Source of the DNA: Acidobacteriota bacterium
GTDB lineage: Bacteria > Acidobacteriota > Terriglobia > Terriglobales > Acidobacteriaceae
NCBI GenBank assembly: GCA_021792795.1
Contig: JAJYUB010000005.1
Span: forward strand, 28,673-92,672
Direction: 5' to 3'
DNA: 64,000 nucleotides
Within the stretch, counting starts at the first letter, position 1. Every line of letters begins with the position of its first letter. The notes below the pieces were generated by a model that worked only from the letters and a program-made list of their open reading frames with translations, was not told the DNA's origin and did not search any database. Below are positions 8,139 to 43,306 of the stretch, in pieces. The translations under genes and the position numbers were made by a program.

Positions 8139-8591
8139 TTACGATTCAGGACAAGAGCGATGGTTTGCAGCGGCTTTGGTTTCGGACTCGCGACCCTTGA
8201 GCCGATCATAGAGGTAAAGATCGCTGACGGTGCCCAGGGCCAGGTTGTAGTAGTCGGGAGTTCCAATGGCTGCGCACAGTTCTTCGTCGAATGCGTGCAG
8301 GGCGTGCAGGTGCGCGGCCGTGGCGGCGACTTCAAGCCGGCTGGCGCGCAGGAATTTCTGATAGCCGCGGTCGACCAGCGTGGAAATCTCGCCGCCAATC
8401 AGGCAGCCGGGCCGGACGACGTAGGCAGCGCCGCCGTTTGGCGTTTTGGCCAGGACCGCGCCGCAGCAGTATTTGCGGACCTGGACCCGATTTGCTGCGC
8501 CGGGAGTGTCCACGACATCAAACCCATGAGAACGAAAATATGTCATGGCGCTATCGAAGGTCTTGGCTGGAGGGTTTGATTTTTTGCTCAT
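8139..8591 (-). CDS. Hypothetical protein (150 aa), family not recognised
   Basis: The ORF from the ATG at 8591 (MSKKSNPPAKTFDSAMTYFRSHGFDVVD...) has a protein-like composition, whereas the overlapping plus-strand ORF 8160..8579 looks like an antisense shadow. Confidence 0.45.
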   Translation of the reverse strand: MSKKSNPPAKTFDSAMTYFRSHGFDVVDTPGAANRVQVRKYCCGAVLAKTPNGGAAYVVRPGCLIGGEISTLVDRGYQKFLRASRLEVAATAAHLHALHAFDEELCAAIGTPDYYNLALGTVSDLYLYDRLKGRESETKAAANHRSCPES

Positions 8592-8784
8592 GAAATTGTC
8601 GATTGCTCTCCAGGTTTCGGAAACGGCGCGAAATCTGCGTGTGCCGCGCACCCGATTGCGACCGTTCGCAAGCTGCCGCTACACTTTCAGTATAGCGTGC
8701 GGGGATTCACCTCCGACGCTTCAAATGTTTCGCCGGAATCGATGAATATCTGAGTGAACGGTTTTGGGGGCGGGTAAAATCACG

Positions 8785-9267
8785 ATGCTGCGCATGGGCC
8801 AGATGCAATTCGATCGGATTCGCCGACATGGAGAAGAGACTTATCCGAACGAGTGCTGCGGGGTCTTGCTGGGTTACGTGGGAACGGACGGCAACAGAGT
8901 GATCGACGCGGTGTCGGCTGAGAATACGCGATCTGACTCGGCTCACAATCGTTACGAGATTGCGCCGCGTGAGCTGGTCCGCATCCAGCAGCAGGCGCGG
9001 CATCGAGGGCTGGACATTGTCGGCTTCTATCATTCGCATCCTGACCATCCTGCAGAGTGGTCAAAGACCGATTTAGAAGAAGCGCACTGGCTGGGATGTT
9101 CGTATGTCATCACCAGTGTGGCGGGAAATGCTGCCGGTGGCGGCGCTGGCACCGGGCGCTGTCTGGCCAAAGAGACAAGCTCCTTTCTGTTGACTGGAAC
9201 GGACGAGGAAGACAAGCGGCTGGAGCGCGAACCCATCGAAGTTACAGCCGGTGTCGATGCACGGTAG
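8785..9267 (+). CDS. JAMM/MPN+ metalloprotease (Mec-like deubiquitinase-type isopeptidase)
   Basis: PNECCGVLLG and GFYHSHPDHPAEWSKTD form the E...HxH...S..D JAMM motif. The start is taken at ATG 8785 rather than TTG 8764. Confidence 0.8.
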   Translation: MLRMGQMQFDRIRRHGEETYPNECCGVLLGYVGTDGNRVIDAVSAENTRSDSAHNRYEIAPRELVRIQQQARHRGLDIVGFYHSHPDHPAEWSKTDLEEAHWLGCSYVITSVAGNAAGGGAGTGRCLAKETSSFLLTGTDEEDKRLEREPIEVTAGVDAR

Positions 9268-9429
9268 CGCGATCGGCGCGATCATGCAGTCGATGCGGAA
9301 CCATTGGTCCGGGCCCGATTGGAATGAACCAAATTTTTCCCACCCTAGCCGCAAAAGACGCGGCGAGGATGGGGCGCCCGAATGCAATACTTTCAGGCCG
9401 GACCAATAGAACCATGCGAAGATTGCATT

Positions 9430-10605
9430 ATGCAGATTGATATTCCCACTCTATCCGCAGCGTTGACGCCGGAAGAGATGTTGCGGTACGCGCGACATTT
9501 GATTCTGCCCGAGGTAGGGGAGGCGGGCCAGATGAAGCTGAAGGCTGCGCGGGTGCTGTGTGTCGGCGCTGGAGGGCTGGGCGCGCCGCTGATTATGTAC
9601 CTGGCGGCGGCTGGCGTGGGTACGCTGGGCCTCGTGGACTTTGACGTGGTTGAGGCCAGCAATCTGCATCGTCAGGTGATTCACGGGACCAACGACATTG
9701 GCCGGCCGAAGCTCGACTCCGCGGAAGACTCGCTGAGGGCCATCAATCCCAACGTGAACGTCGTAAAATTTCCAACCCGGCTGAGCAGCGAGAACGCGAT
9801 GGAAATTTTCAAGGATTTCGACATTATTGCGGACGGCACCGACAATTTTCCAACGCGCTACCTGGTGAACGATGCCTGCATCCTCTCTGGAAAGCCGAAC
9901 GTATACGCCTCGATCTTCCGCTTTGAAGGGCAGGCCAGCGTGTTTGGCGCGAAAGACGGCCCTTGCTATCGCTGCCTGTATCCGGAGCCGCCGCCGCCGG
10001 GAATGGTCCCTTCCTGCGCAGAGGGAGGCGTGCTGGGGATTCTGCCGGGGCTGCTGGGGACCATCCAGGCGACGGAGGTCATCAAGCTGATTCTGGGCAC
10101 GGGTGGGCCGCTGGCGGGCCGGCTATTGCTGGTCGATGCGCTGGCCATGCGTTTCCGCGAATTGAAACTCCACAAAAACCCTGAATGCCCGGTGTGCGGG
10201 ACGCATGCTTCGATCAACAAGTTAATTGACTATGAACAATTCTGCGGGCCGCCTTCCAATTCCGCCGCGCTAGCCACGATGGTCAATGGCATTCCACAGA
10301 TGCAGGTGGAGGAACTGAAACGACGCCTCGATGCGGGCGAGGACTTATTTGTGCTGGACGTGCGCGAGCCCTATGAATTCGCCATTGCGGAGATGGGCGG
10401 GCGCTTGATTCCGTTGAATGACCTGCCTCAGCGAGTGAGAGAACTCGATCCGAAGCGGGAAATTGTGGTGCAGTGCAAAGCGGGCGGACGCAGCCAGAAA
10501 GCCGCGGAATTTTTGTCGCAGAACGGATTCAAGAAGATCCACAACCTTGCGGGTGGCATCAACGCGTGGTCGGAGAAGGTGGACCCGAAGGTGCCGAAAT
10601 ATTAG
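9430..10605 (+). CDS. moeZ: E1-like adenylyltransferase/sulfurtransferase MoeZ/MoeB-type with C-terminal rhodanese domain
   Basis: RYARHLILPEVG, CVGAGGLGAP (ATP loop) and CYRCLYP...CPVCG (Zn site) are present, followed by a rhodanese domain with the active-site loop QCKAGGRS. Confidence 0.85.
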   Translation: MQIDIPTLSAALTPEEMLRYARHLILPEVGEAGQMKLKAARVLCVGAGGLGAPLIMYLAAAGVGTLGLVDFDVVEASNLHRQVIHGTNDIGRPKLDSAEDSLRAINPNVNVVKFPTRLSSENAMEIFKDFDIIADGTDNFPTRYLVNDACILSGKPNVYASIFRFEGQASVFGAKDGPCYRCLYPEPPPPGMVPSCAEGGVLGILPGLLGTIQATEVIKLILGTGGPLAGRLLLVDALAMRFRELKLHKNPECPVCGTHASINKLIDYEQFCGPPSNSAALATMVNGIPQMQVEELKRRLDAGEDLFVLDVREPYEFAIAEMGGRLIPLNDLPQRVRELDPKREIVVQCKAGGRSQKAAEFLSQNGFKKIHNLAGGINAWSEKVDPKVPKY

Positions 10606-10649
10606 CGAACTGGGCGTCATACCCCTTGTAGTTCGGCATTCGGGCGCCG

Positions 10650-11891
10650 TTATAGCTCCCAATCCGTTTTCCAACGCACGCGGTCGCGCAGTTTCCAGGT
10701 GGCGGCAATCAAGGCTAGTAACAGACAGAAACTGACGATGACGACGGCGGGCCAGAACTCCCAGCGCCGGATGTGAAGCAGCCGCTCGCCGTACCAGAAA
10801 TAAGCAATCAACCCCAGCAGCCAATTGCGCGCGGCGCTGCTCTCCGCCTTTAACGCGACGGCAAGGGGAAACATCAGGAAAAGAAAATCGTAGATCTGGT
10901 GCTTGAAGCAGAGCAGACAGGCGGTCGTGAGGCAGGCCATCAGTACGCGGCCGTCGACGTGTTGGCCTCGCGCGAAGAAATACAACGCAATTCCGATGGC
11001 CAGTGCGATCCCGCAGAGGTAGGGAAGTACCACCATCCATCCGGTTACAGGTGAGAGGTAAAAAGCATCGGGCACGGGCTGAAACAACGGCGGATGCCGC
11101 ATCGCGATTTCGCTAACGGCCATGATGTTCGCCAAGCCGGGGGAGACATTATTCGTAGAGGCGCGTAAGGGTTCCCAGAGCAATGTCCAGAAGGGCGGGC
11201 GCAGCCAACCATAGATGAACAAAAATCCGAGCGCGGGCGGCAGCAGCGAATAGAGCAGCAAGCGCCAGCGACGCCGCAGCAATAAATACGCGGCCAGAAC
11301 GGGCGGCACGCTGTATTTGGCCCAGGCAACTCCAAGGAGTAGGCCGCGTGCCTGGGAAGACCTCGCCACAGCCCACAGCGCCAGCGATGCAACTACCAGT
11401 GCGGTCACCTGGCCGTTCCCGATGGTGACGCGGGCGGGCGTGCTGGTCAGCGCCAGCAGAGTGAGCAGCCATGCTTTGCGGCCGTTCAATTCGTACATTC
11501 GCGCGACAAGCGAACAACTCAACAGCACCAGCGCCACGTTGATGCTCGCCCAGACGATTTTGGCCGGCATCAGTGGCAGATAGCCGAAGGGCAGCATCGC
11601 GACGTAGAGCTCATGCAGATCGTTGGGGACCTGATTCAGCAGGATGCGATGGCCGGGGTCGCCGGCAAGGTAAGTGGCCCAGGGGTCGATGTGCTGCGTG
11701 AGCAAACGCGCGGGGCTCCATTGAAAATCGAGCGAGTGGAGGATGCTGTTGCGAATTCCATCCGCAATGGAAACGAGCGCGAGGATTGTCCCCATCCAAA
11801 GAGCCGGTAGCGATAGAAGCCAATCCAGCCAGCGGTCGGGTCGCTTGCCAGACTCGACGGCGGACGGCGTCCGATTTTCAGATGGGTCCAT
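10650..11891 (-). CDS. Polytopic membrane protein, DUF2029/GT87-like putative glycosyltransferase
   Basis: The ATG at 11891 (MDPSENRT...) lies 44 nt after the radical SAM stop. About 10 predicted TM segments; the composition and loop pattern recall GT-C-type DUF2029 proteins. Family assignment is from memory and not verified. Confidence 0.6.
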   Translation of the reverse strand: MDPSENRTPSAVESGKRPDRWLDWLLSLPALWMGTILALVSIADGIRNSILHSLDFQWSPARLLTQHIDPWATYLAGDPGHRILLNQVPNDLHELYVAMLPFGYLPLMPAKIVWASINVALVLLSCSLVARMYELNGRKAWLLTLLALTSTPARVTIGNGQVTALVVASLALWAVARSSQARGLLLGVAWAKYSVPPVLAAYLLLRRRWRLLLYSLLPPALGFLFIYGWLRPPFWTLLWEPLRASTNNVSPGLANIMAVSEIAMRHPPLFQPVPDAFYLSPVTGWMVVLPYLCGIALAIGIALYFFARGQHVDGRVLMACLTTACLLCFKHQIYDFLFLMFPLAVALKAESSAARNWLLGLIAYFWYGERLLHIRRWEFWPAVVIVSFCLLLALIAATWKLRDRVRWKTDWEL

Positions 11892-11935
11892 GGATGCGCA
11901 GCGCCCTTGTTGGGAGTGTACTGAAGGGCAATGGA

Positions 11936-12997
11936 TTAGGAGAGCTGAATGTGGACCAGTTCCTGGTCCTGCACGGGTCTTGTCGGGTGCATGCCGGGGG
12001 AAATCTTTGAAGTCTGCGGGGCCCGCCAGTGGTCGATATACGAAACCTGGTGGACGCAGGAGATGGTGCAGTTGGGGGCACAGGTTTTCTCGGTCAGGAA
12101 TTCTCGCTGGACGTCCTGGCGGCGATACTCCGACAGCGGCGTTCCAGGCCAGCCGCGCTGTTGCGAGCAGTAATGCACCAGGCCGTTTTCGCAAATGTAG
12201 ATATACCGCGCGCCAGCGCGGCATCGCCAATCGTTGGGCTCGCCTTTGACAATGGCTTCCTGAAAATGATTGAAGCGCGAATAATGCTTTTTGCCGAGGC
12301 CCTTTACCTCGCAGTAAATCCGGCGCTCCTCATCCCGCAAAGGCTTCAACTGGCCGTCGCCGTCGTGAATGATGCCGATGGTGGAGGTGAATCCCAACTC
12401 CAATGCGCGACGCGCAATGGTCAGTGCGTCCTGCGGATATTTGATGCCGCCGCCGACAACGGAATTGATGTTGACATGGAAATCGGCGTGCTCGGCCAGC
12501 ATCTGCAGTTTCTTGTCGAGCACCTTGAGGCTCTTTTTGGAGACTTCGTCGGGCTGCACGTTGTCAATGGAAATCTGCATGTGGTCGAGACCGGCGCGAT
12601 TGAGGCGTTGGATGCGATCGGGCATCAATAGATAGCCATTGGTGATCATGCCGGCGATGCGGCCATGATGCCGGATGCGGGCGACGATCCGCTCCAGCTC
12701 CGGATGCAGCAATGGCTCGCCGCCGGAGATGGTGATCACACTGGTGCCGAGGCGGGCAAGGTCGTCGATGCGGCGCAGCATTTCCGGCACTGGGACCGGC
12801 TCGGAGACATCGTCAAACTCATTGCAATAGGTGCAGGAGAGGTTACAGCGCCGCATGGGCACGATGTGCGCCATGTAGGGATGGCTGGTCGATGCCACGG
12901 CATGGGCAATGGAGGCGAGTTCGCGAACCCGTCGGGTCGCGGCCTTGATGCGGCGGGAGAGCGACCGGCGGGCCAAAGTGGAGGAGCGTTCCGTCAT
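11936..12997 (-). CDS. Radical SAM protein (MoaA/PqqE-like core) with Cys-rich C-terminal SPASM/twitch-like region
   Basis: CNLSCTYCNE is the CX3CX2C cluster motif, and ISGGEPLL is the SAM-binding GGE motif. The C-terminus has CRAGARYIYICENGLVHYC and CAPNCTISC. Confidence 0.85.
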   Translation of the reverse strand: MTERSSTLARRSLSRRIKAATRRVRELASIAHAVASTSHPYMAHIVPMRRCNLSCTYCNEFDDVSEPVPVPEMLRRIDDLARLGTSVITISGGEPLLHPELERIVARIRHHGRIAGMITNGYLLMPDRIQRLNRAGLDHMQISIDNVQPDEVSKKSLKVLDKKLQMLAEHADFHVNINSVVGGGIKYPQDALTIARRALELGFTSTIGIIHDGDGQLKPLRDEERRIYCEVKGLGKKHYSRFNHFQEAIVKGEPNDWRCRAGARYIYICENGLVHYCSQQRGWPGTPLSEYRRQDVQREFLTEKTCAPNCTISCVHQVSYIDHWRAPQTSKISPGMHPTRPVQDQELVHIQLS

Positions 12998-13049
12998 CTC
13001 TATTCATTGAATCACAGTGGGATGGGAAGCGAACAGAGGGGCCTTCCTT

Positions 13050-14810
13050 TCACGAGGATGGGGAAACATCGCCATCGCCTTCATGCATCGAGGCGGGCAC
13101 GCCTCTCGCGCTTTGTCCCAGGCGTACCAGCCGGGGGACCGACAGCAGGGTGACGGCATATAGAAAGATGGATGCGGCGGTGAATCCAAGGTGGCCGTGG
13201 CGCATGTCTTCAAACAGCAGTTTCGACGCGACAAATACCAATACTCCATAGGCCAGCCATCCCAATTCCTTCCGCTGCCAGCGGGAGCCGCTATAGGCAA
13301 GGACAAGCGCCATCGCGCAAGCGGTCAGCGTCCGGATGACCGCAATATGAGAGGCCCCGGGAGCGATGCCGAACGCCATGAGCCGCGCCAGCGCCCATAC
13401 CAGCAGCGCCGCCGTGGCGCAGGCCGCCAAAGACGCTGACAGGACATAAAGAAGCCGATGCTTCCATTGCTCTGCCTGAGAACGTCTTTCCAGTGCATAG
13501 CAAAGAACAATGCCGGCGCTGACCAGCCAGAGAAGCCAAGCGGGCGACGGTGGAAAGGTCCCGGCAATCGCGTGGAAGATATACGCCGTTAGCCCGGAGG
13601 AAAATGCAGCCGCCCACAGAAACAGCAACCCGTGGAATTCCAGCGTCAGGCGCGCTGACCGTACCCCTGCAATCGTGGCCGCAATCGCAGCGGCGCTTAG
13701 GGACAGAACCAGCCACACCGGAGGGAGACATAAGTGACCGCCGGCCAGAAAGAGGGCCAGGCTCCCAGTAGCATACACATGGTAGTTGCGCCGCTCAGCA
13801 GCGGCGCCGAAGCGGGCAAAGGCAATGGCATAGCCGACTGCGGAAGCGAAGAAGCAAAGCGCCCCAAGTACAACCGCGCCCACGCCCGACCAGAACGAAA
13901 GCACGCTCCAGGAGGCCAGCAGGAACGCAACCAGTGTCTGCGCTACTTCAAAGAAGGCGATCCTCCGCCCCCGCAGCATCGTCTGCGCCGTGGCGCTTGC
14001 CCCGTAAATCAGCAGCAGAATGGGGGCGAGCGCCAGCAGCAGCGGTCGGCTGACTGCCGCGTACTCCATGCCGGCCCTTTCCGGTCTGGAGCCGATATAG
14101 ACCAGGGCCCATAGGGCAATGTCCGCGGATGCCGCCACCAGCGGCCTGACGGTCAGCTCGCGATTGCAGGCCGCCGCGTACTCGCCGGCAATGGTCATTA
14201 TTAGAAGCGCCACGATGAATGGGGCCAAGTCGTGTGTCGCGATCGCCATGATGAGAGCGGCAGTGCTGCCGGCGGCAGCCGTCACCCAGGCAATGGCGGT
14301 GAAATGGCGTTTCCACGCCAAGGCGAAGGACGCAACGGCAAACGTGGCGAGGACACTGGACGCCATCGCGGGCGGAAAGACCCTGAACCGCAACGTAAGC
14401 TCCCACAGCATGGGAACAAGAATCAGGACGGACGTGGCGGCATAGGCAACGCTGGCAAACCATGCCTCGGGCTTGACCCTCGTCGCCGCAACCAGCCACA
14501 TGGCAGCGTAGACAATTGCAATCGCGATCACCGCCGCCCGTGGGAATGTGGTCGATTCCGCCAGCGCCCGGAGCAGGTAGGCCCCCGCGATGCCGAGCAT
14601 CGCTTTGCCGACCACGGAAAACGCTCCGCCAGCCTGCGTGGAGGGGAGTGCCGGGGAAGTATGCGCCGTCGCTGCTTGGGTGTCAGCTTGTACGAGGGCC
14701 GGCGGCTGCATCTGGGATGGATGTTCGAGAGCGTAGACACGGCGCTCCAGAGCCTCCAGATTCGTGGTCAGTCGTGCCAGAGTGCCGGGAAGATCGTCCA
14801 TCGTCTCCAC
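13050..14810 (-). CDS. Large polytopic membrane protein (~18 TM) with N-terminal coiled coil, DUF2339-like
   Basis: 586 aa. The N-terminus LPGTLARLTTNLEALERRVYALE is followed by continuous hydrophobic helices rich in A/L/V. Confidence 0.65.
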   Translation of the reverse strand: METMDDLPGTLARLTTNLEALERRVYALEHPSQMQPPALVQADTQAATAHTSPALPSTQAGGAFSVVGKAMLGIAGAYLLRALAESTTFPRAAVIAIAIVYAAMWLVAATRVKPEAWFASVAYAATSVLILVPMLWELTLRFRVFPPAMASSVLATFAVASFALAWKRHFTAIAWVTAAAGSTAALIMAIATHDLAPFIVALLIMTIAGEYAAACNRELTVRPLVAASADIALWALVYIGSRPERAGMEYAAVSRPLLLALAPILLLIYGASATAQTMLRGRRIAFFEVAQTLVAFLLASWSVLSFWSGVGAVVLGALCFFASAVGYAIAFARFGAAAERRNYHVYATGSLALFLAGGHLCLPPVWLVLSLSAAAIAATIAGVRSARLTLEFHGLLFLWAAAFSSGLTAYIFHAIAGTFPPSPAWLLWLVSAGIVLCYALERRSQAEQWKHRLLYVLSASLAACATAALLVWALARLMAFGIAPGASHIAVIRTLTACAMALVLAYSGSRWQRKELGWLAYGVLVFVASKLLFEDMRHGHLGFTAASIFLYAVTLLSVPRLVRLGQSARGVPASMHEGDGDVSPSS

Positions 14811-14843
14811 CGCGTTTCGAGACCCTCTACAATGGGCGCGGCG

Positions 14844-16043
14844 TCAATTCGCAGCGGTAGTCGCGGGAATCTCAGCCTGAACTTTCTCCGGCCAGGGAGG
14901 CAGCAGCTTCACCAACACCCATAAAATAAACAATGGCAGGAGGGTCAATGCAATGGACATGAGCAACCCCTCCCGCGTGGCCAATGCCATCTTGTAGGTC
15001 GTGTAGCCAAGGAAGCTCTTGGAAAACAACTGGCCTCCAATCACAACGTTCCAACGCATGGCGAAGATGCCGATCAGGGTCAGACATCCAGCGACGGTAT
15101 AGATACGCTTCCGCGCAATTTCGGGGAGCTTCAGCACCTGGGTCAAGGCCAGCAATAGGATCGGAGTCAGGGTCCCCACAAAAATCTGGAGGACGATCTG
15201 GGAAAAGTAGAGTTTGGTGTGGACCATGAAATTCAGCGTGCGAAAGGACTCGTCCGCCTCGTAAATCCGATGGACCAGGTCGAGCATTTCCAGGCTGAAA
15301 TCGACAATGAATATATAGAACAGATAACGGGCGATCGTATCCACGCACAGCATGTCGATCTTCTCTCGACGGAGCCGCATGATCAGCATATACAGCAGCA
15401 TCACGGCGGCAATCCCCGATACCATGGCGGAGAAAATAAACACCACAGGCATCAACGGCGACGACCACCAGGGATTTGCCTTGATGGAGCCGAAGATGAA
15501 CCCGACATACCCATGCAAGAGAAAAGCGGAAGGAATGCCTATCAAGGTGATCAGCCATCCCACCCGTTCGTCGATGGCAAGCGCGCGCTCATTGATGTTG
15601 TTCGAGCCCAGCGTCAACACCCGATAGATCCAGCGCTTCAGGCCGCTGGAAGACTGGGCCATCACGACGATATCGCGACGGTAGTCGAGCCAGATTTCGA
15701 CGGTCAGGACCGCCATCAAGTACCACAAGTACACGAACCCGAACATGGCCATGGCCGATGTGCGATGGGGAGTGAAATACATTTCCAGCGAGCGTTCCGG
15801 ATGTCCCAGGTGCAACTGCAATGGCAAAGGCGCCACCAGCAGGAAGGCCAACGCGGTCAGCAACGCCAGCCGGTAGGTGGGCTTCACCGCATCGACCCGG
15901 AAGACACGCTCCAGCGACGCCAGAATGAATGCCCCGGCCACCAGTCCCGTAATGTAGGGGTATAGGACGATCAGCACGCTCCAATAGAGGGTGATCTCGT
16001 TGGGATACATGTAGCCTTCCACGCCAGTCGTCATATTTGCCAA
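14844..16043 (-). CDS. NrfD/PsrC-family quinone-interacting integral membrane subunit
   Basis: 399 aa. YWSVLIVLYPYITGLVAGAFILASL and multiple TM helices are typical of the NrfD/polysulfide reductase membrane subunit. Confidence 0.85.
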   Translation of the reverse strand: MANMTTGVEGYMYPNEITLYWSVLIVLYPYITGLVAGAFILASLERVFRVDAVKPTYRLALLTALAFLLVAPLPLQLHLGHPERSLEMYFTPHRTSAMAMFGFVYLWYLMAVLTVEIWLDYRRDIVVMAQSSSGLKRWIYRVLTLGSNNINERALAIDERVGWLITLIGIPSAFLLHGYVGFIFGSIKANPWWSSPLMPVVFIFSAMVSGIAAVMLLYMLIMRLRREKIDMLCVDTIARYLFYIFIVDFSLEMLDLVHRIYEADESFRTLNFMVHTKLYFSQIVLQIFVGTLTPILLLALTQVLKLPEIARKRIYTVAGCLTLIGIFAMRWNVVIGGQLFSKSFLGYTTYKMALATREGLLMSIALTLLPLFILWVLVKLLPPWPEKVQAEIPATTAAN

Positions 16044-16077
16044 TCTCCTTCAATGCACCCACGGGCGCAACCGGCGC

Positions 16078-16812
16078 TTATCGCACCGAGCCGTCCAAAT
16101 CGTTATAGAAGACCTTCGCCCCCGTGGCCATTTGCGGCTTCAAGATCTGCACGTCGTGGGTCCGCAGAAACTCGTGGATCGGGTCCTTGGGATTTTTTAA
16201 ATCGGCCAGTTGGCGCGCCCCGGTCGGACATGCCTCGCAACATGCGGTCGTGAGTCCCTTGGTGATCCGGTGGTAGCAAAGGGTACACTTGTCCGCGACT
16301 TTTTTCTGGGGATGAATGTAGCGGCAGCCGTAGGGGCAGGCTTGTACGCAGTAGGCGCAACCCAGGCAGTATTTTTGGTCCACCAGCACAACCCCATCCG
16401 GGCTGATGAAAGTCGCTCCCACGGGACAGACCTGGGTGCATGGCGAATCCGCGCACTGGTTGCAGAGTTTGGGGACGAAAAAATATTTCCCGTTGTCGTC
16501 CGCTGCGACAGAGGGAAATCCCTTCTTGCCGCCGTCCGGCGAGATGACCTCAGGGTTCTCAAGGTGCCAGTCCGTCACGTGGTAGCGTTCCACCCAGGTG
16601 CGAAAGAACCCGTCCGGCACATCGTTTTCGGCCTGGCAGGCCCGGACACAGTTGCCGCAACCGATGCATTTGGAAATGTCGATCAGCATGCTCCACCAAT
16701 GCTCGGTCATCTTATAGTTGGGGGAAGATTCCGGGGTCCCAGCCAACACAGATTCCCATGCGACGGCCGCCGCAGGCAGCAGGATCAGCATTTGACGCCG
16801 GGTGATGTTCAT
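16078..16812 (-). CDS. Tat-exported 4Fe-4S ferredoxin-type subunit (NrfC/HybA/DmsB-like, four cluster motifs)
   Basis: MNITRRQMLILLPAAAVAW is a twin-arginine signal. Cluster motifs are CIGCGNCVRAC, CNQCADSPCTQVCP, CLGCAYCVQACP and CTLCYHR...CCEACP. Confidence 0.9.
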   Translation of the reverse strand: MNITRRQMLILLPAAAVAWESVLAGTPESSPNYKMTEHWWSMLIDISKCIGCGNCVRACQAENDVPDGFFRTWVERYHVTDWHLENPEVISPDGGKKGFPSVAADDNGKYFFVPKLCNQCADSPCTQVCPVGATFISPDGVVLVDQKYCLGCAYCVQACPYGCRYIHPQKKVADKCTLCYHRITKGLTTACCEACPTGARQLADLKNPKDPIHEFLRTHDVQILKPQMATGAKVFYNDLDGSVR

Positions 16813-17279
16813 TTCGCGCCTCCTGCGCCGATGGCCGGGTTGTGCGGCTGGTGACAGGTCTCACAGGGAAGGCCATTGGAGTGGTCGACCGCCGCCACTT
16901 GCGGGAAACCCTTCGGCCTGGCGGCGCTCGCCGCGTGACAGCGGACACATAACACCGCAGTGTCCAGTTTGGCGGGCTGGATGGAAGGGTCGTCGGCATG
17001 CTTTGCCAGCGGGCCATGGCAGGCTTCGCAATTCACCTGCGCGTGCATGCCGCTCCTCTTCATTTCCTGGACGTCGGCGTGGCAGGTCTCGCAAGCCTGA
17101 TGGCCGGCGTAGTGGACCGGATGGGCGGCAATCTCCGCGATGGCAGCCCCGCGGTAGTGTCCATATTGCCCAAAGCTTCGCGGAACAAAAAAGGCGCGTA
17201 TCCCCAAAAATGTCAATGTGCCGACTGCATAGAGCGCGGCCAATCGGAAAAGATGCCCTGAATCCTTAAAGACGCTCAT
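16809..17279 (-). CDS. Membrane-anchored tetraheme cytochrome c (cytochrome c3/NrfH-like)
   Basis: The ATG at 17279 gives a 156-aa protein with one N-terminal TM helix and four CxxCH sites (CETCH, CEACH, CVRCH, CETCH). It overlaps the next gene by 4 nt (ATGA). The 348-aa ORF extension upstream is R/G/P-rich junk. Confidence 0.85.
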   Translation of the reverse strand: MSVFKDSGHLFRLAALYAVGTLTFLGIRAFFVPRSFGQYGHYRGAAIAEIAAHPVHYAGHQACETCHADVQEMKRSGMHAQVNCEACHGPLAKHADDPSIQPAKLDTAVLCVRCHAASAARPKGFPQVAAVDHSNGLPCETCHQPHNPAIGAGGAK

Positions 17280-17429
17280 GGAACCATGTCCCCTCCACGC
17301 AACTGCGCGGCGTTTTTTCGCAATAAATCCTGAAAACTTTACTATCCATAAATCCACGTAAGGTTGTATGTGCTCCACATCACCTTCTTTGGAATTCGCG
17401 CCGCACTCGCGGAGTTGTGGGCGTCCAGG

Positions 17430-17820
17430 AACCTGTCCCTGCTTTTTCCGCCGCCACTGCACGATTGGCCCCCTGACAATCGCCGGGGCCGTTTTCTGGC
17501 GGACGCGGTTTGCGCTCGGTCTGGAAGCGGTCCACTCGTCTTTACGGCGAGAAGGACGGTCGTGGCATGTCGGCCTATGCTCCGGCGATGATGGCGCGGG
17601 TGCTGCTTTACGGCCAGGCGGGCGGAGTTTACATCTCGCGCAGGATCCAGGCCAGGACCTGCGACGATGTGGCGCTTCGCTGCCTCTCTGCCGACGAAAA
17701 GCGCCCGCAGCCTGAACGAAGAGGCCGCCCATCAAGCCGGAAGACCGCCTGTCGCCACCCTGAAGACGGTGGAGTTGGAAGTGGAACTGACTTCGCAGTT
17801 GGCCAGCATGGCCAGCCAGC
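17430..17820 (+). mobile_element. Decayed IS1182/IS5-type transposase N-terminal fragment (DUF772-like region) with multiple frameshifts and no DDE domain
   Basis: Pieces lie in three frames: LSLLFPPPLHDWPPDNRRGRFLADAV, then YGEKDGRGMSAYAPAMMARVLLYGQAGGVYISRRIQARTCDDVALRCLSADEKRP, then ATLKTVELEVEL. These match the consensus LLP..LDDWLPEDH.ARF....V / GRPAY.P.MMLKVLLY.Y..G..SSR.IE.....DVAFR.L....PD as I recall it. Confidence 0.55.
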
Positions 17821-18062
17821 GGATTCTGCCGCAAACCAGCTTCGCTCCTCCGCAACCAACTCCGCCAACTTTACAGATGGACCTCCTGCCCGGCTGCCAG
17901 GCCGCTAAATTCCGAGGAAACTCCAAATAGAAGACCCATTGACGAGCAGAGGGCCGTTACGCATACGGTGCAGGCGGTATGCTGAATGATGTGCTTGAAC
18001 GGCATTGGGGGGGTGAAATCGCCTTCTGCCGTTCGACTGCGCGCTAGATACCGCATTGAGCC

Positions 18063-19316
18063 ATGGCTGCCGCCAACACGCATAGTTCGTCCTTTGCCCG
18101 CACCCTTGCCAGCGCCAAAAGAACCATGGTGCTGAGCGAGATCCTCTCTCTTGCCTTCGATAGCTTTCGCAACAACAAAGTGCGCTTTGCGCTGACCGCT
18201 CTGGGCATGGTCATGGGTTCGGCGTCGGTGATCCTGGTGGTCACCATTGGACTGACAGGCAAGCAATACGCAATCAACCTGATTCAGGGCATCGGCGCCA
18301 ACATGGTTGTCGCGGACTGCCAGTGTGGAGGGATGAATCCAGACTCTCTCACTAACGACGACCTGATTGCGGTCGACGAACAGGTCCCCGGCATCCTCTG
18401 GTCTTCGCCCATGCTGGAGATGCAGGTCCCGATTAGCTTCGGAGACGGAAAAGTGAAAGACATCCTGGTCCTGGGCGTTTCTCCGGAGTATAAAGATGTT
18501 CGAAACCTGGTGGTCCTTTCCGGGCGTTTCTTCGATGAAGAGGACACCGTCAGCCACGCTAAAGTGGCTGTGGTCACGGTCCCGTTTGCCGAAAGCCTGT
18601 TTGGCAGCGCGGACCGGGCCATGAACAAGACCTTTACGGTCCGAGGGATTCCCTTCACCATCATCGGAACATTCAGAGAAAAAGTCCCTACGTTTGGAAT
18701 GTCGGAGATTGCGAGACAGACGATCTTGATTCCTTACCCGGTGGGGCGTTATTTCACCGGAACCAACGCAGTGAAGCAACTGTTCTTCTCTGTCCGGAAT
18801 TTCAGGGACACGCCGCGGGCACGGAATGAGATTGCCAAGATCATCCAGTCCAGGCACCGGCCCGGCTCAGTATATGACGTCGTCGAATACACGGCACTGG
18901 TGGACACCGCGGCACACATCGCGGACATTATGACTCTGGTGTTGCTGTTGGTCTCTGCCGTCACCCTGGCAGTCAGCGGGGTGGGCATTATGAACATCAT
19001 GCTGGCAACGGTGCGATCTCGGATCCGGGAAATCGGCATTCGAAAGGCCGTGGGCGCCACCTATCGAGAGATCCAACTGCAATTTCTGGCGGAAGCAATC
19101 CTCATTTCGCTTAGCGGCGGCATTATCGGCACGCTGCTCGGCTTGGCGCTCCCCCTTTCTGTCCGCTTTATCTTGCCCGCATATATAATTCCCATTTCGC
19201 CGTGGTCGGTTGTTATTTCGCTATCTACAGCAATGGTCGTTGGAATTCTATTTGGTACCTTGCCAGCCACGCGCGCTGCCCAGATGGATCCCGTGGAGTC
19301 TCTCAAGTACGAGTAA
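18063..19316 (+). CDS. ABC transporter permease, MacB/FtsX family (MacB periplasmic domain plus FtsX 4-TM domain)
   Basis: 417 aa. N-terminal LSLAFDSFRNNKVRFALTALGMVMGSASVI, C-terminal IREIGIRKAVGATYREIQLQFLAEA...DPVESLKYE. An alternative start lies at 18126. Confidence 0.85.
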   Translation: MAAANTHSSSFARTLASAKRTMVLSEILSLAFDSFRNNKVRFALTALGMVMGSASVILVVTIGLTGKQYAINLIQGIGANMVVADCQCGGMNPDSLTNDDLIAVDEQVPGILWSSPMLEMQVPISFGDGKVKDILVLGVSPEYKDVRNLVVLSGRFFDEEDTVSHAKVAVVTVPFAESLFGSADRAMNKTFTVRGIPFTIIGTFREKVPTFGMSEIARQTILIPYPVGRYFTGTNAVKQLFFSVRNFRDTPRARNEIAKIIQSRHRPGSVYDVVEYTALVDTAAHIADIMTLVLLLVSAVTLAVSGVGIMNIMLATVRSRIREIGIRKAVGATYREIQLQFLAEAILISLSGGIIGTLLGLALPLSVRFILPAYIIPISPWSVVISLSTAMVVGILFGTLPATRAAQMDPVESLKYE

Positions 19317-40600: not shown

Positions 40601-41142
40601 AACTGCCTGTCGGGAGGGGTCACCGGGTAGGCGCAAACATGAATCGCGTGCTGGATGTTATCATCGGCGGCTGGCAACTGAACACCATGACGACATATCA
40701 GACTGGACAGCCGCTAGACATTTTTATGGCTACCAATAGAATCGCGGACGGCACGCAACGCCCGAATGTTGTCTGCCCAAGCAGTAATTCCTTAGAAACA
40801 GGGACCAGCCGGACCGCCTCCGCTCGCTTCGCACTGCCTACCCTAAACGTAAACTGCTTCTCCGATCCAGGCGATCAGCAACCAGGAAATGCTCCACGAT
40901 ATTTTTCCCGCTTGCGATCGGATGGTATCCATGAAACCGATCTCACTTTAGAGAAAATATACGACTTCGGCGGACGCAAGGGGCAGCTTCAATTTCAGGG
41001 AGACTGCTTTAACTGCACCAATACACCCCGCTTTGGATTGCCGGATACAGGCTATGGAGACTCGACATTTGGGGTGATTTCCGCCAGTGCCGGCGGAGCG
41101 TTACCCCGGAACATGCAACTCGGGGTACGGTATCAGTTTTAG
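37627..41142 (+). CDS. TonB-dependent outer-membrane receptor with carboxypeptidase-regulatory-like N-terminal domain
   Basis: 1171 aa. Signal peptide, then ISGTITDPSGAVVQGAKVTITDVGTNISQTTTSNGRGSYAFTALRPSNYKL (CarboxypepD_reg-like), a plug region, a long beta-barrel rich in N/Y/T/G, and a C-terminal ...LGVRYQF aromatic terminus. RBS is GGGAGGGG. Confidence 0.85.
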   Translation: MRAGRFVILLGFVLGVGCLSSIVLAQSINQTQISGTITDPSGAVVQGAKVTITDVGTNISQTTTSNGRGSYAFTALRPSNYKLLVESTAFGSVEKDGITLTVNQQTLLNVTLKPASQQATVTVEAIPVLLDSADATLGTDIPSKYLTQVPLENRDPFGVTFLAAGVTETAGVGIQDSYPGGTEFVSNGQRNATANIWLDGVLITAPEQGAGGESGTYYQATVEGLQEVKVQNNSFTAEYGGGTNIDEILKSGTNRLHGSAYWFNQDAVFDARDFFNNGPRPGHVQNQDGFSLGGPFVKNKTFFFGDLESIIASNPVNIEATVPTAAQINGDFSKSMTYDQNGNPVLNQIFDPFLIDPVAYSRPAYPNNVIPANEIDPVGQAILKLYPKPNLPGDPVSGANNFQDVILSSSNTLQIDFKVDQQFTPKSTLSVRYSSIFGSGSTPTVFGDGEFNDGTAFTEHIFNDGINYSYTPTANTLWTTTIGLDRVSQPSFSNYPSPTSVGFPSYLEQNGVTRMPSIIMNNSPWTSIYDQCCVDTKFAHTLVNYTSSFSWTRGQHTIKFGGQQQLFYNNFFQPNYPDGYFTFAQHITSQIPYNTDNGIQGNDFAGLLIGWATNSSGINVGSSVADKSKETAFYIQDDWRATSKLTLNLGLRYQWDTPYTERHNNTQFSDLTGDSGISVAGYPGTLKGTTIFASSKKRNLPTDYSNIDPRFGFAYMENDKLVIRGGAGIYTGYGVATNWQYPGAAYTSSPEAFFTLNGELTRNATLENPFPGGIPPAQGQEYGKLALWGLPDTNNIGTATAKNAKIYQWNLGIQQALPSDIVVGINYSANRSTYLPWAGTRNRNFIASNIRVNYTSQQLNGLANNPFQSLFSGPGAIFNVPSSRYGDAQIPLLNLLRPYPQFDGNFNAYKIIGASSWYNALQLVFQKRAGHDLSFEGNYTWSKSTDDSSAGTNAFLGTLADGYPQELDHLKREWTVSANDATNRLAVAAIWQLPVGRGHRVGANMNRVLDVIIGGWQLNTMTTYQTGQPLDIFMATNRIADGTQRPNVVCPSSNSLETGTSRTASARFALPTLNVNCFSDPGDQQPGNAPRYFSRLRSDGIHETDLTLEKIYDFGGRKGQLQFQGDCFNCTNTPRFGLPDTGYGDSTFGVISASAGGALPRNMQLGVRYQF

Positions 41143-41203
41143 CGGACCTGGTGCGCACCTCGGGAAACCTTCGACCCAGCCGGTGCCCCTCCGAACTTCA
41201 CCT

Positions 41204-41235
41204 GGATGGCCCACTTCTAAAAAAGTGCGCCATCC
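41204..41235 (+). terminator. Stem-loop (11-bp stem with 1 mismatch, A-rich 10-nt loop) between the receptor gene and the downstream gene; possible attenuator or processing site
   Basis: GGATGGCCCAC-TTCTAAAAAA-GTGCGCCATCC, read directly. There is no 3' U tract. Confidence 0.2.
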
Positions 41236-41251
41236 GGATTGGAGCTAGTTC

Positions 41252-43189
41252 ATGCCGAAACAGCCCCGTTTTGGGTCGATAGTAACTGTAGCGTTTGTAG
41301 CTACAATTCTGTTGCCTGCGCCTCCCATCCTAGCGCAGTTCCCCGCGAAAAACCCGCGCGCATGGATGAACGACGTTCGCATCGGCGCGTATGGACTTAC
41401 CGGTTCGAACGCCGCGCAAATCGTTCGGCAGGCAACGAACAGCGGAGTCTACGGCATCGAAGTCGATAACGACATCCCTGGCCGGTATGAGAGCTTCGTC
41501 GATCCTACCGCCAAACTTCAGGCCATTCGTCAGGTTGCAGCGCTCGCTCACGAACATGGCAACCACGCTTTTGTCTACATCGCTGGACTGGAGTGCATTA
41601 CAGCCAACGCGGCGGACTCTCCCCACTCCATGGCCAAGGACCATCCCGGCTGGCTGCAGCGCAAGCGTTCGGGCGAGCCGGCAATGTTCACCGCGAAAGC
41701 GGCGTTCTGGATTCGAAAAGGCGACGAAGACGTCTGGGTCACGCCCTATGCGCCGGAATGGCGCAAGATTTACATGCAGCGTGTCCGCCAGATCGCAGCC
41801 ACCGGCATCGACGGCATCTACGTTGACATTCCTTACTGGATGACGCATTTCACGGGATGGGAAAATAGCTGGGCCAGTTTTGACGACTATACGGTCAACG
41901 CATTCCATGACCGCACCGGCTTGAATGCCCGGACGGACATCAAGCTCGGCGACTTCAATGATCCAGGCTTTCGTAAATGGATCGATTTCCGCATCCAGAC
42001 AATCACGGATTTCCTGGCTGAGATCCGCAGGAACGCGACCTCGGTGAACCCGAACATTGCAGTCATTCCAGAGATTTATCCCGGCATCGAAGAGTCTGCG
42101 GTCCGCGTCGGCGCAGATGTGTATCGGCTCTATCCAGTTGTCGACGCGGTCTCGCACGAATATGAATTCGGCGATGGAGAGGACCATACCGCCGCCAGCC
42201 GCGGCCAATACGACTGGTTCATGTACCAGATCGGGATGCAATCGTTTCGCGCGTTCGCGGAAAACAAACCCACCTGGATGCTGAATTATTCCTGGGACGG
42301 CAACCCGCAAGTCACTCCCAGCGATGCGATGAAGAACCTGGCCATGTCGGAGTTGATGGCAGGAGCAAACTTCTGGGACGCCCCAGGCCACACCATGGCT
42401 GGCTCAAACGACATGGCCACGCGAACCCAAATATTCCATTGGATCGCGACGAATCAGTCGACTTTCAGTTCGCCTAGAATCCCGGTCGGCAAGGTTGGCG
42501 TATATTTTTCCGACAGGACGCGCAATTACTTCCCCGATGAGTTTCTTCGTTCATATCAGGGGGCCCTCCTGCTGCTATTGCGCAGCCACATCCAATTTCA
42601 AATCGTCACTCCAAGAACATTGGCATCCTTCCACGGCAGCACTCTGGTTTTGCCTGATGTGCGCGTTCTCAGTTCAGAAGAGCTAGCCCAGTTACAGAAT
42701 ATTTCTAGCAGTTGCAAAATCATCTCTACTGGAAAGGTCGATGACCGTTTAAATACACTTCACAATCTAGTTCATCTGCAAGACGATCCAGGCAGCACAT
42801 ATCTGGCGCTGGCGCAAAAGGATTTCGACGGCGCTCCTCTGGACACCCAATCGCGGTTCTTGCAGTCCATCAATAACGCCGCTGATTTTTCCGTCCAGGC
42901 ATCCCCCGATATCGCCGTCTACGTTGCGACGGTACAACATCGGACACATTGGTACTTTGCAAACTTCAAAGGGTTGCAGAAAGGCGCCGCCACCGTGCCC
43001 GTGCCTGAGCGGAACATCGTTCTCGAGGCCCCCCTGCGCGGCGGAACAAACCTACATCTTCTGCCGTTTCTTGGCACAGCGATCACTTTGCACGGGACGG
43101 TTTCGGACGATCGCGTGAAATTCAATATTCCGCGAATAGATCGCGGGGCCGTCGCCTGGACCGACCATGATGGCTCGACGCCGCAGTGA
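41252..43189 (+). CDS. Secreted hypothetical protein, putative TIM-barrel glycoside hydrolase-like (family not recognised)
   Basis: 645 aa with a signal peptide (FVATILLPAPPILAQ). Segments such as GIYGIEVDND, FVYIAGLEC, GIDGIYVDIPYW and AVIPEIYPG suggest alternating beta-strand/acidic-residue patterns of a (beta/alpha)8 hydrolase. This is inference only. Confidence 0.5.
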   Translation: MPKQPRFGSIVTVAFVATILLPAPPILAQFPAKNPRAWMNDVRIGAYGLTGSNAAQIVRQATNSGVYGIEVDNDIPGRYESFVDPTAKLQAIRQVAALAHEHGNHAFVYIAGLECITANAADSPHSMAKDHPGWLQRKRSGEPAMFTAKAAFWIRKGDEDVWVTPYAPEWRKIYMQRVRQIAATGIDGIYVDIPYWMTHFTGWENSWASFDDYTVNAFHDRTGLNARTDIKLGDFNDPGFRKWIDFRIQTITDFLAEIRRNATSVNPNIAVIPEIYPGIEESAVRVGADVYRLYPVVDAVSHEYEFGDGEDHTAASRGQYDWFMYQIGMQSFRAFAENKPTWMLNYSWDGNPQVTPSDAMKNLAMSELMAGANFWDAPGHTMAGSNDMATRTQIFHWIATNQSTFSSPRIPVGKVGVYFSDRTRNYFPDEFLRSYQGALLLLLRSHIQFQIVTPRTLASFHGSTLVLPDVRVLSSEELAQLQNISSSCKIISTGKVDDRLNTLHNLVHLQDDPGSTYLALAQKDFDGAPLDTQSRFLQSINNAADFSVQASPDIAVYVATVQHRTHWYFANFKGLQKGAATVPVPERNIVLEAPLRGGTNLHLLPFLGTAITLHGTVSDDRVKFNIPRIDRGAVAWTDHDGSTPQ

Positions 43190-43230
43190 CCGCCGCAGTG
43201 TAACAATTGGGTCCGACGCCAAAATCTTAC

Positions 43231-43306
43231 TGGTGGGCCCGGAGGGATTTGAACCCCCAACCAAAGGATTATGAGTCCTCTGCTCTAACCGTTGAGCTAC
43301 AGGCCC
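43231..43306 (-). tRNA. tRNA with anticodon CAT (elongator Met or Ile2/lysidine type; not initiator), CCA encoded
   Basis: The reverse complement folds as GGGCCUG-UA-GCUC-AACGGUUA-GAGC-A-GAGGA-CUCAUAA-UCCUU-UGGUU-GGGGG-UUCAAAU-CCCUC-CGGGCCC-A-CCA. This gives a 7-bp acceptor stem (one G-U), a 4-bp D stem, 5-bp anticodon and T stems, and a TTCAAAT T-loop. Confidence 0.9.

Follow-up and report, generated by a model that had tools for sequence, protein, structure and literature searches.

Respiratory modules in which a multiheme cytochrome c, an iron-sulfur (FeS) protein, and an integral membrane subunit are encoded together without a catalytic subunit are known from several bacteria. A module of this kind was analyzed here in a 64,000-nucleotide (nt) stretch of DNA, referred to as the window, from an Acidobacteriaceae genome (Acidobacteriota bacterium, GenBank assembly GCA_021792795.1, contig JAJYUB010000005.1, positions 28,673 to 92,672 of the forward strand). 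Six open reading frames (ORFs) of the window encode, in reading order, a tetraheme cytochrome c, an FeS protein, a NrfD protein, a polytopic membrane protein (TM18), a radical S-adenosylmethionine (SAM) enzyme (rSAM), and a GT87-like protein (Table 1). The region is probably not one six-gene system; it appears to be a juxtaposition of independent units, namely a cassette made of the first four genes, the rSAM gene, and the GT87-like gene.

The Cbc4 complex of Geobacter sulfurreducens (CbcS/CbcT/CbcU, GSU0068-0070) is thought to be a menaquinol:cytochrome c oxidoreductase and has no catalytic subunit. Its anchored tetraheme cytochrome, its protein with four [4Fe-4S] clusters, and its integral membrane subunit resemble the first three products of the cassette, a match made by published description and not by sequence. 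Cbc4 differs in belonging to another phylum and in being a three-gene cluster for which no TM18-like fourth gene is reported, and CbcU is drawn as a b-type cytochrome in one paper, whereas the NrfD protein of the window is cofactor-less. DsrJOP is a published three-gene equivalent without a catalytic subunit. In Escherichia coli NrfABCD and Shewanella SirCD, a pair of the NrfC/NrfD type delivers electrons from quinol either to NrfB, a small multiheme cytochrome of the periplasm, or to several reductases, and SirCD is a quinol dehydrogenase able to replace CymA. Unlike in E. coli, no NrfA or other reductase is encoded near the cassette.

The Nhc and Qrc complexes of Desulfovibrio run the reverse reaction, from periplasmic cytochromes to menaquinone. 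NhcABCD and QrcABCD are each built from a multiheme cytochrome c of the periplasm, an NrfC-type FeS protein, a 10-helix NrfD-like subunit, and one further subunit, and neither has a substrate-converting site. However, they carry 9 or 6 hemes compared with 4 here, their extra subunits are unrelated to the DUF2339-like TM18, and QrcB is a molybdopterin-like protein without cofactor. Alternative complex III (ActABCDEF) likewise has an anchored multiheme cytochrome, FeS clusters, and a NrfD-like quinol site, and its cofactor-less polytopic subunits ActD and ActF, thought to serve ion translocation or structure, offer the best analogy for the role of TM18. It differs in its ActB, a large fusion protein that includes a molybdopterin-like domain, in its pentaheme ActA, and in an ActF that is NrfD-like, which TM18 is not. 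The cassette was rejected as an alternative complex III because its FeS protein of 244 amino acids (aa) has no MopB-like domain and because it encodes four hemes, a single NrfD, and a TM18 that is not NrfD-like.

For TM18 itself, the only studied distant relative is the DUF2339 protein Arc3A of Pseudomonas aeruginosa (PA5114), which is also a very densely packed polytopic protein, keeps its loops minimal, and shows no residues that are obviously catalytic. Arc3A differs in having about 35 helices, a partner lipoprotein (Arc3B), and a function in defense against phospholipase toxins. No link between DUF2339 and a respiratory module was found in the one DUF2339 paper examined. The sequence-only reading of the region, which preceded this analysis and used no database searches, had named no characterized pathway that combines the parts encoded by the six genes. 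The cytochrome/FeS/NrfD trio without a catalytic subunit does have precedents, as Cbc4, SirCD, and NhcABCD are of such a kind; the trio is a known type of NrfCD quinone module with a small anchored multiheme cytochrome, and what was not found in the literature is its obligate fourth gene. In the open-access literature, neither a cytochrome/FeS/NrfD/DUF2339 unit nor a NrfD from Acidobacteriaceae genera was found described.

The four-gene cassette

The conservation of the cassette was followed from TM18 in two sets of loci. A metagenome set, obtained by a scan with alignment A1, held 80 further loci with TM18 relatives of 44-73% identity, and its counts are limited to loci with enough flanking sequence. 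A looked-up set held 11 informative contexts of TM18 relatives at 32-63% identity. Of 60 metagenome loci with enough upstream sequence, 59 had NrfD immediately ahead of TM18 and on its strand, and the whole cytochrome c-FeS-NrfD trio preceded TM18 in 51 of 52. Among the look-ups, 10 of 11 showed the order cytochrome c-FeS-NrfD-TM18, or NrfD directly upstream where the contig was short. In contrast, the flanks were unrelated and differed each time across the looked-up loci, among them a thiamine pyrophosphate enzyme, GH20, BlaI/M56, a [NiFe] hydrogenase operon, YdjM, and peptidase M19, and an rSAM or GT87-like gene occurred anywhere at only 2 of 58 metagenome cassette loci. A fifth conserved cassette gene was not found; the commonest neighbors (FolD, CoaE, and an HDOD protein) occurred at no more than 16 of 88 loci and are housekeeping genes, the recurrence of which looks like shared ancestry.

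Since NrfD or the whole trio adjoins TM18 nearly everywhere while the other neighbors vary, the real unit is four genes encoding the anchored tetraheme cytochrome c, the FeS protein exported by the twin-arginine translocation (Tat) pathway with four [4Fe-4S] clusters, NrfD, and TM18. This distribution shows TM18 to be obligately co-inherited with the redox genes. The sequence-only reading had tied the redox module to all three genes downstream of it; the part concerning the large polytopic protein stands, as TM18 stays with the redox genes, and the part that drew rSAM and GT87 into the same system does not, as neither is regularly syntenic with the module.

The cassette has so far been seen only in Acidobacteriota. 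TM18 relatives formed 1,128 clusters at 90% identity and 1,678 clusters at 50%, extending at full length down to 32% identity; those with source names were all annotated as hypothetical, and every named organism was of an Acidobacteriota lineage. This taxonomic range is drawn from few named records and from the high identity of NrfD, which was 75-94% across the cassette loci. The cytochrome was 59-81% identical in the looked-up loci. Median identities to the window proteins at cassette loci were 82-83% for NrfD and the FeS protein, 68% for the cytochrome, and 52% for TM18.

Table 1. Position and products of the cassette genes and of the adjoining features, in window coordinates.
Feature	Position	Strand	Description
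Tetraheme cytochrome c gene (cassette gene 1)	16809..17279	-	156 aa; N-terminal hydrophobic anchor, 4 CxxCH
FeS protein gene (cassette gene 2)	16078..16812	-	244 aa; Tat leader, 4 x [4Fe-4S] NrfC/PsrB-type ferredoxin
NrfD gene (cassette gene 3)	14844..16043	-	399 aa; NrfD/PsrC-family quinone-interacting membrane subunit
TM18 gene (cassette gene 4)	13050..14810	-	586 aa; ~19-helix polytopic membrane protein
rSAM 5' block	12998..13065	-	conserved; outside the cassette; TGTGATTCAAT at 13006-13016
Radical SAM (rSAM) gene	11936..12997	-	353 aa; separate unit; CxxxCxxC
GT87-like gene	10650..11891	-	413 aa; separate unit; PF09594

The six ORFs were recomputed and agreed in coordinates and junctions with the sequence-only reading. 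The junctions measure -4, 34, 33, 52, and 44 nt, the first being a 4 nt overlap in which the FeS gene starts within the cytochrome gene. The earlier domain calls were likewise confirmed by Pfam and NCBIfam profile searches and by a motif check of the proteins.

In the cytochrome, the CxxCH motifs stand at residues 63, 84, 111, and 139 behind a single N-terminal anchor, and further His residues are numerous enough for bis-His ligation. Its profile matches were limited to a weak NrfH-type hit (E 0.007), with no match to the NapC/NirT Pfam family. The FeS protein carries the twin-arginine leader ITRRQML, matches Pfam Fer4_11 at 2e-23, and groups its Cys at residues 49-59, 117-129, 149-163, and 176-195, as in a four-cluster ferredoxin of the NrfC/PsrB type. 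PsrB (2vpw_B) was its closest solved relative at 2e-42, and the FeS chains of alternative complex III matched weakly at about 4e-15. Its best NCBIfam scores all fell below the cut-offs (TtrB 195 vs. 416, DsrO 154 vs. 200, and NrfC 132 vs. 378), as did that against QrcC (99 bits vs. 400). The third protein belongs to the NrfD/PsrC family, with a PF03916 match over residues 18-340 at 4e-38 and 132 bits against a cut-off of 25.8. It has about 9-10 hydrophobic segments; His and Cys are seldom conserved in it, and no cofactor ligand is. Its equivalog scores were 52 vs. 348 for NrfD and 27 vs. 350 for DsrP, and no solved relative was found by sequence with either the single protein or a 10-sequence profile.

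Assignments to described enzyme systems were rejected. NrfABCD was set aside as no NrfA occurs in the window region or at any cassette locus and the NrfC and NrfD scores lie far below their cut-offs. A molybdoenzyme of the TtrABC/PsrABC type was rejected because no molybdopterin subunit flanks the cassette at any locus and TtrB is below cut-off, and DsrMKJOP because no DsrMK-like genes are present, the hemes number four and not three, and neither DsrO nor DsrP reaches its cut-off. The absence of a molybdopterin, NrfA, or other catalytic partner, claimed earlier for the cluster alone, was thus seen in and beside the cluster and at every related locus inspected.

TM18 of the window had no Pfam or NCBIfam match, and none to DUF2339 even at E <= 10. 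Weak DUF2339 (PF10101) matches were obtained in 12 of 28 TM18 homologues, with a best value of 1.9e-5, and no precomputed Pfam domain was listed for any TM18 relative in the homologue searches. The AlphaFold2 model, with a predicted local distance difference test score (pLDDT) of 81.8, shows an N-terminal helix (residues 7-34) bearing a conserved LxxRVxxLE motif, a disordered Pro/Ala/Gln linker, and about 19 helices in tight packing, joined by minimal loops. Charged residues conserved within the membrane are the invariant R81 and E137 and the nearly invariant E210, K530, and D535. Lys and Arg occur in odd and even loops of the model alike when the positive-inside rule is applied by eye, which gives no orientation. 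A Foldseek search against the Protein Data Bank (PDB) returned soluble helical-repeat proteins only, the best at E 0.09. In a divergent alignment of TM18 there was no invariant His or Cys and no conserved His/Cys pair, and TM18 therefore probably lacks heme and cluster alike. TM18 was also considered as a heme lyase of the CcmF/NrfE type or as a b-type cytochrome, and both were rejected because it has no Cytochrom_C_asm match, no WWD motif, and no invariant His. From these comparisons TM18 may be described as weakly DUF2339/Arc3A-like and seemingly cofactor-less.

Proposed electron transfer and the likely place of TM18

The first three products would form a periplasm-facing, quinone-linked electron-transfer module, and its redox proteins are placed in the periplasm because of the Tat leader of the FeS protein and the membrane anchor of the cytochrome. 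NrfD-family subunits carry no cofactors of their own, and their quinone site adjoins the FeS subunit. The proposed path would run, in either direction, between the menaquinone pool, NrfD, the four [4Fe-4S] clusters, the four hemes, and an unlinked periplasmic or extracellular partner. NrfD would exchange electrons and protons with the menaquinone pool, which in Acidobacteriaceae we take to be menaquinone-8, the exported FeS protein would wire the electrons through its four clusters, and the anchored tetraheme cytochrome would give them to, or take them from, a separately encoded partner. The quinol-oxidizing direction, that of a quinol:cytochrome c dehydrogenase, is favored because the best FeS relatives are TtrB, DsrO, NrfC, and PsrB and because no donor is conserved nearby, and it is to be taken as a weakly grounded guess.

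By analogy with NhcD or with ActD/ActF of alternative complex III, TM18 would most likely be an additional integral-membrane subunit of the complex. It could stabilize the complex or add a pathway for ions, quinones, or lipids by way of R81, E137, E210, K530, and D535. A lipid- or quinone-handling role would be possible because its distant relative Arc3A protects against phospholipase toxins. More tentative still, and on balance less likely than not, is the reading that makes TM18 an obligate fourth subunit and thereby marks out a new class of NrfCD-type respiratory complex peculiar to Acidobacteriota, with its DUF2339/Arc3A-like bundle of dense helices supplying an ion-translocating, quinone-channeling, or lipid-organizing function.

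Several observations speak against the proposed quinol-oxidizing complex with TM18 as a subunit. The physical association of TM18 with NrfD is deduced from gene order alone, and TM18 diverges much faster than its partners, which is unusual for a tightly packed core subunit. At one metagenome locus (L086) the genes next after the cassette form a [NiFe] hydrogenase operon, an arrangement that would fit electron input and not output. At another (L091) a TM18 relative of 35% identity occurs without the trio, divergent from a gene for a multiheme cytochrome of the NapC/NirT type, so the partnership of TM18 with the trio is not absolute.

In L086 (9906-14018) the operon begins 178 nt after the cassette and encodes the small and large hydrogenase subunits, a cytochrome b, and a HycI maturation protease; the adjacency may reflect H2-linked electron flow, or coincidence. 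In L091 (228-9731) the NapC/NirT-family cytochrome beside the TM18 relative has 488 aa, and a multiheme cytochrome of 930 aa is encoded nearby, behind a partial Ni_hydr_CYTB gene; it matches Ni_hydr_CYTB faintly, below threshold. A member of the TM18 family here again adjoins membrane quinol/cytochrome proteins.

The hydrogenase operon bears on the direction of electron flow. The same four-gene complex might work in reverse as a periplasmic-donor:menaquinone reductase, possibly electrogenic, that receives electrons from periplasmic cytochromes or a hydrogenase. Qrc and Nhc, which also join a cytochrome c, an FeS protein, NrfD, and an extra subunit, run this way, and the operon of L086 would fit it. 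This alternative was judged unlikely, however, as the hydrogenase adjacency was seen once and in an operon with a cytochrome b of its own, the surroundings of the cassette show no conserved periplasmic donor, and the best FeS relatives come mostly from quinol-oxidizing complexes.

The rapid divergence of TM18 and its occurrence without the trio in L091 would instead suit a membrane-protection protein of the Arc3A type, acting on lysophospholipid or membrane damage and co-expressed with the redox module without being a subunit of it, for instance to shield the membrane under the same conditions. The weak DUF2339 matches among the homologues point the same way, given that in Pseudomonas proteins of the DUF2339/Arc3A type counter phospholipase toxins by themselves. 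Against this, the adjacency to NrfD in 59/60 and 10/11 loci, with short spacers and down to 32% identity, exceeds usual co-regulation; the kinship with DUF2339 is weak and is not seen for the protein of the window; and TM18 is about half the size of Arc3A, with no Arc3B-like gene seen. A role in membrane protection is therefore regarded as improbable, and TM18 as an additional subunit of a quinol-oxidizing complex is the reading retained.

The radical SAM and GT87-like genes

The rSAM protein carries the motif CNLSCTYC (CxxxCxxC) at residues 51-58, matches PF04055 with 81.6 bits against a cut-off of 29.5, and has six invariant C-terminal Cys at 259, 269, 277, 306, 310, and 314. It has no hydrophobic segment and is therefore predicted to be cytoplasmic. 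Its NCBIfam scores (MoaA 72 vs. 284, PqqE 65 vs. 381, Tes 46 vs. 450, and HpnH 44 vs. 225) cover the N-terminal core only, as do its sequence matches in the PDB. The AlphaFold2 model reached a pLDDT of 63, falling below 50 in the Cys-rich C-terminal part, and with this moderate-confidence model Foldseek returned generic radical SAM cores (AbmM, MoaA, HydE, BlsE, and viperin) at TM-scores of no more than 0.5. MoaA, PqqE, NirJ, Tes, HpnH, and other characterized families were rejected, as all equivalog scores were below cut-off and confined to the core. The claim that the enzyme lies outside any characterized family was thus supported by the NCBIfam, PDB sequence, and Foldseek comparisons, and rSAM is an uncharacterized radical SAM enzyme that forms an independent unit.

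Its synteny was examined in 80 genome loci, all from Acidobacteriaceae or Terriglobales, with orthologues of 73-95% identity. The same range, 73-95% across Acidobacteriaceae, makes rSAM unusually conserved. The cytochrome c, FeS, NrfD, and TM18 genes stood beside rSAM in only 6 of the 80 loci (L001-L004, L007, and L027), and all six genes are collinear in these 6 and in the 2 of 58 cassette loci noted above. In L007, a 2.5 kb outer-membrane-protein gene on the opposite strand lies between TM18 and rSAM. In L005, L006, L008, and L009, rSAM is 90-93% identical and the downstream GT87, ThiF-rhodanese, and JAMM genes are kept, whereas the four upstream genes are absent. Comparison of L001, L004, and L027 with L005 showed a precise presence/absence polymorphism of about 5.3 kb. 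The indel contains a thiazole-kinase gene together with the four cassette genes and is bounded by a Na+/H+ exchanger gene on one side, while on the other it stops about 60 nt short of the rSAM ATG. Some of the relatives that lack the module in this way have an rSAM of 91-93% identity and are as close as those that carry it.

The usual upstream neighbors of rSAM, found in 54-55 of the 80 loci, are an extracytoplasmic function (ECF) sigma factor, a zf-HC2/HEAT anti-sigma factor, and a double-PDZ protein. Because these neighbors are conserved, they suggest that the rSAM enzyme may belong to a unit linked to envelope stress or regulated proteolysis. The three genes lie on the same strand, 0.2-3.5 kb upstream of rSAM (L009, L010, L017, L018, L023, L075, and about 50 other loci), and are absent from the 64 kb window.

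The gene also has its own leader. A stretch of about 60-70 nt ahead of the rSAM ATG can be aligned among 9 loci whose upstream genes are of four different kinds, and homology between loci with and without the cassette restarts about 60 nt before the ATG. A core of CTGTGATTCAATrA was found 5-10 nt before the rSAM ATG in 36 of the 80 loci, in Acidobacteriaceae across genera, with a TCGC-containing element about 20 nt further upstream. The window holds a single copy, TGTGATTCAAT, 8 nt before the rSAM ATG. The motif (TGn-TTCAAT) resembles an extended -10 element, from which we infer a nearly leaderless rSAM mRNA. Since the leader is kept whatever gene lies upstream, rSAM is separate from the cassette. 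The stop codon of TM18 (13050-13052) lies inside this conserved block, and the C-terminus of TM18 is therefore extended here relative to its homologues.

The GT87-like protein, a polytopic member of a glycosyltransferase family, matches PF09594 (formerly DUF2029) over residues 97-327 at 2e-16, with 60.8 bits against a cut-off of 25, and scored 22 vs. 413 against a mannosyltransferase equivalog. It was found downstream of rSAM in 11-12 of the 80 loci and is a lineage-restricted neighbor and a separate unit. In L001 (11107-12349) the orthologue is broken into several ORFs (247 aa and fragments), which could be a frameshifted pseudogene or an assembly error of the metagenome-assembled genome.

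The separation of the cassette from rSAM has one point to its discredit: the 52 nt gap between TM18 and rSAM holds no terminator-like site, nor does the rSAM/GT87 junction, and in this lineage transcription may read through from TM18 into rSAM. Consensus scans of 10300-18100 found no terminator or promoter sites at the junctions, and promoter-like sites were fewer than in shuffles, which makes the scans uninformative. The proposal of the sequence-only reading, in which all six genes are one system whose redox module supplies or withdraws electrons while a membrane or envelope substrate, handled by TM18 and GT87, is modified by radical SAM chemistry, could appeal to these junctions, to the shared strand and the spacing of -4 to 52 nt, and to the arrangement kept in L001-L004, L007 (with the insertion), and L027, but it fails on synteny and is highly improbable, as the adjacency is confined to one shallow clade and is polymorphic even there by the clean 5.3 kb indel, the usual neighbors of rSAM are the ECF sigma, anti-sigma, and double-PDZ genes, rSAM or GT87 is found at just 2/58 cassette loci, rSAM has its own conserved leader, and the enzyme is predicted to be cytoplasmic whereas the redox centers would be periplasmic.

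Further features were noted on either side of the six genes. On the plus strand at 8764-10605, a JAMM/MPN (Prok-JAB) gene and a ThiF-rhodanese (MoeZ/MoeB-like) gene converge on GT87; the two are syntenic with rSAM-GT87 in the close clade, which suggests a possible sulfur-carrier or ubiquitin-like activation pair. An ORF of 170 aa without a Pfam match lies at 8139-8651 on the minus strand, between ArsR-type regulator/AHSA1-like genes and the JAMM gene, and the DNA of its region is about 82% identical in L004 and L027. Upstream of the cassette, collinearity with relatives stops 0-125 nt before the cytochrome gene (window 17280-18062). The DNA that precedes the cassette in L001, L003, L004, and L027 corresponds to window 40854-43306, and about 23-26 kb therefore appears to have been inserted or rearranged in this genome. 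A transposase fragment, a DUF772-like ORF at 17510-17908 on the plus strand (E 1.9e-4, a sub-gathering score), lies at the breakpoint, and the G+C content drops to 0.50 at 38-40 kb of the window.

Significance for Acidobacteriaceae

Terriglobia, and Acidobacteriaceae among them, belong to the most abundant bacteria of soils, and little is understood of how flexible their respiration is. Separating the cassette from rSAM stops a false pathway hypothesis and directs attention for the radical SAM enzyme to its ECF sigma/anti-sigma/PDZ context. For the cassette, a quinone-linked periplasmic electron wire without a terminal enzyme implies an undiscovered redox partner or extracellular electron exchange, and the strict pairing of this wire with a dense polytopic protein of the Arc3A-like type is a testable clue to the function of such proteins. 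If TM18 were indeed the fourth subunit, the DUF2339 superfamily would gain its first mechanistic context, one tied to quinone redox chemistry, and in soil Acidobacteriaceae, which are abundant and supposedly aerobic, the cassette would represent an unrecognized electron outlet or inlet, for instance for the reduction of metals or humics or for electron input linked to H2.

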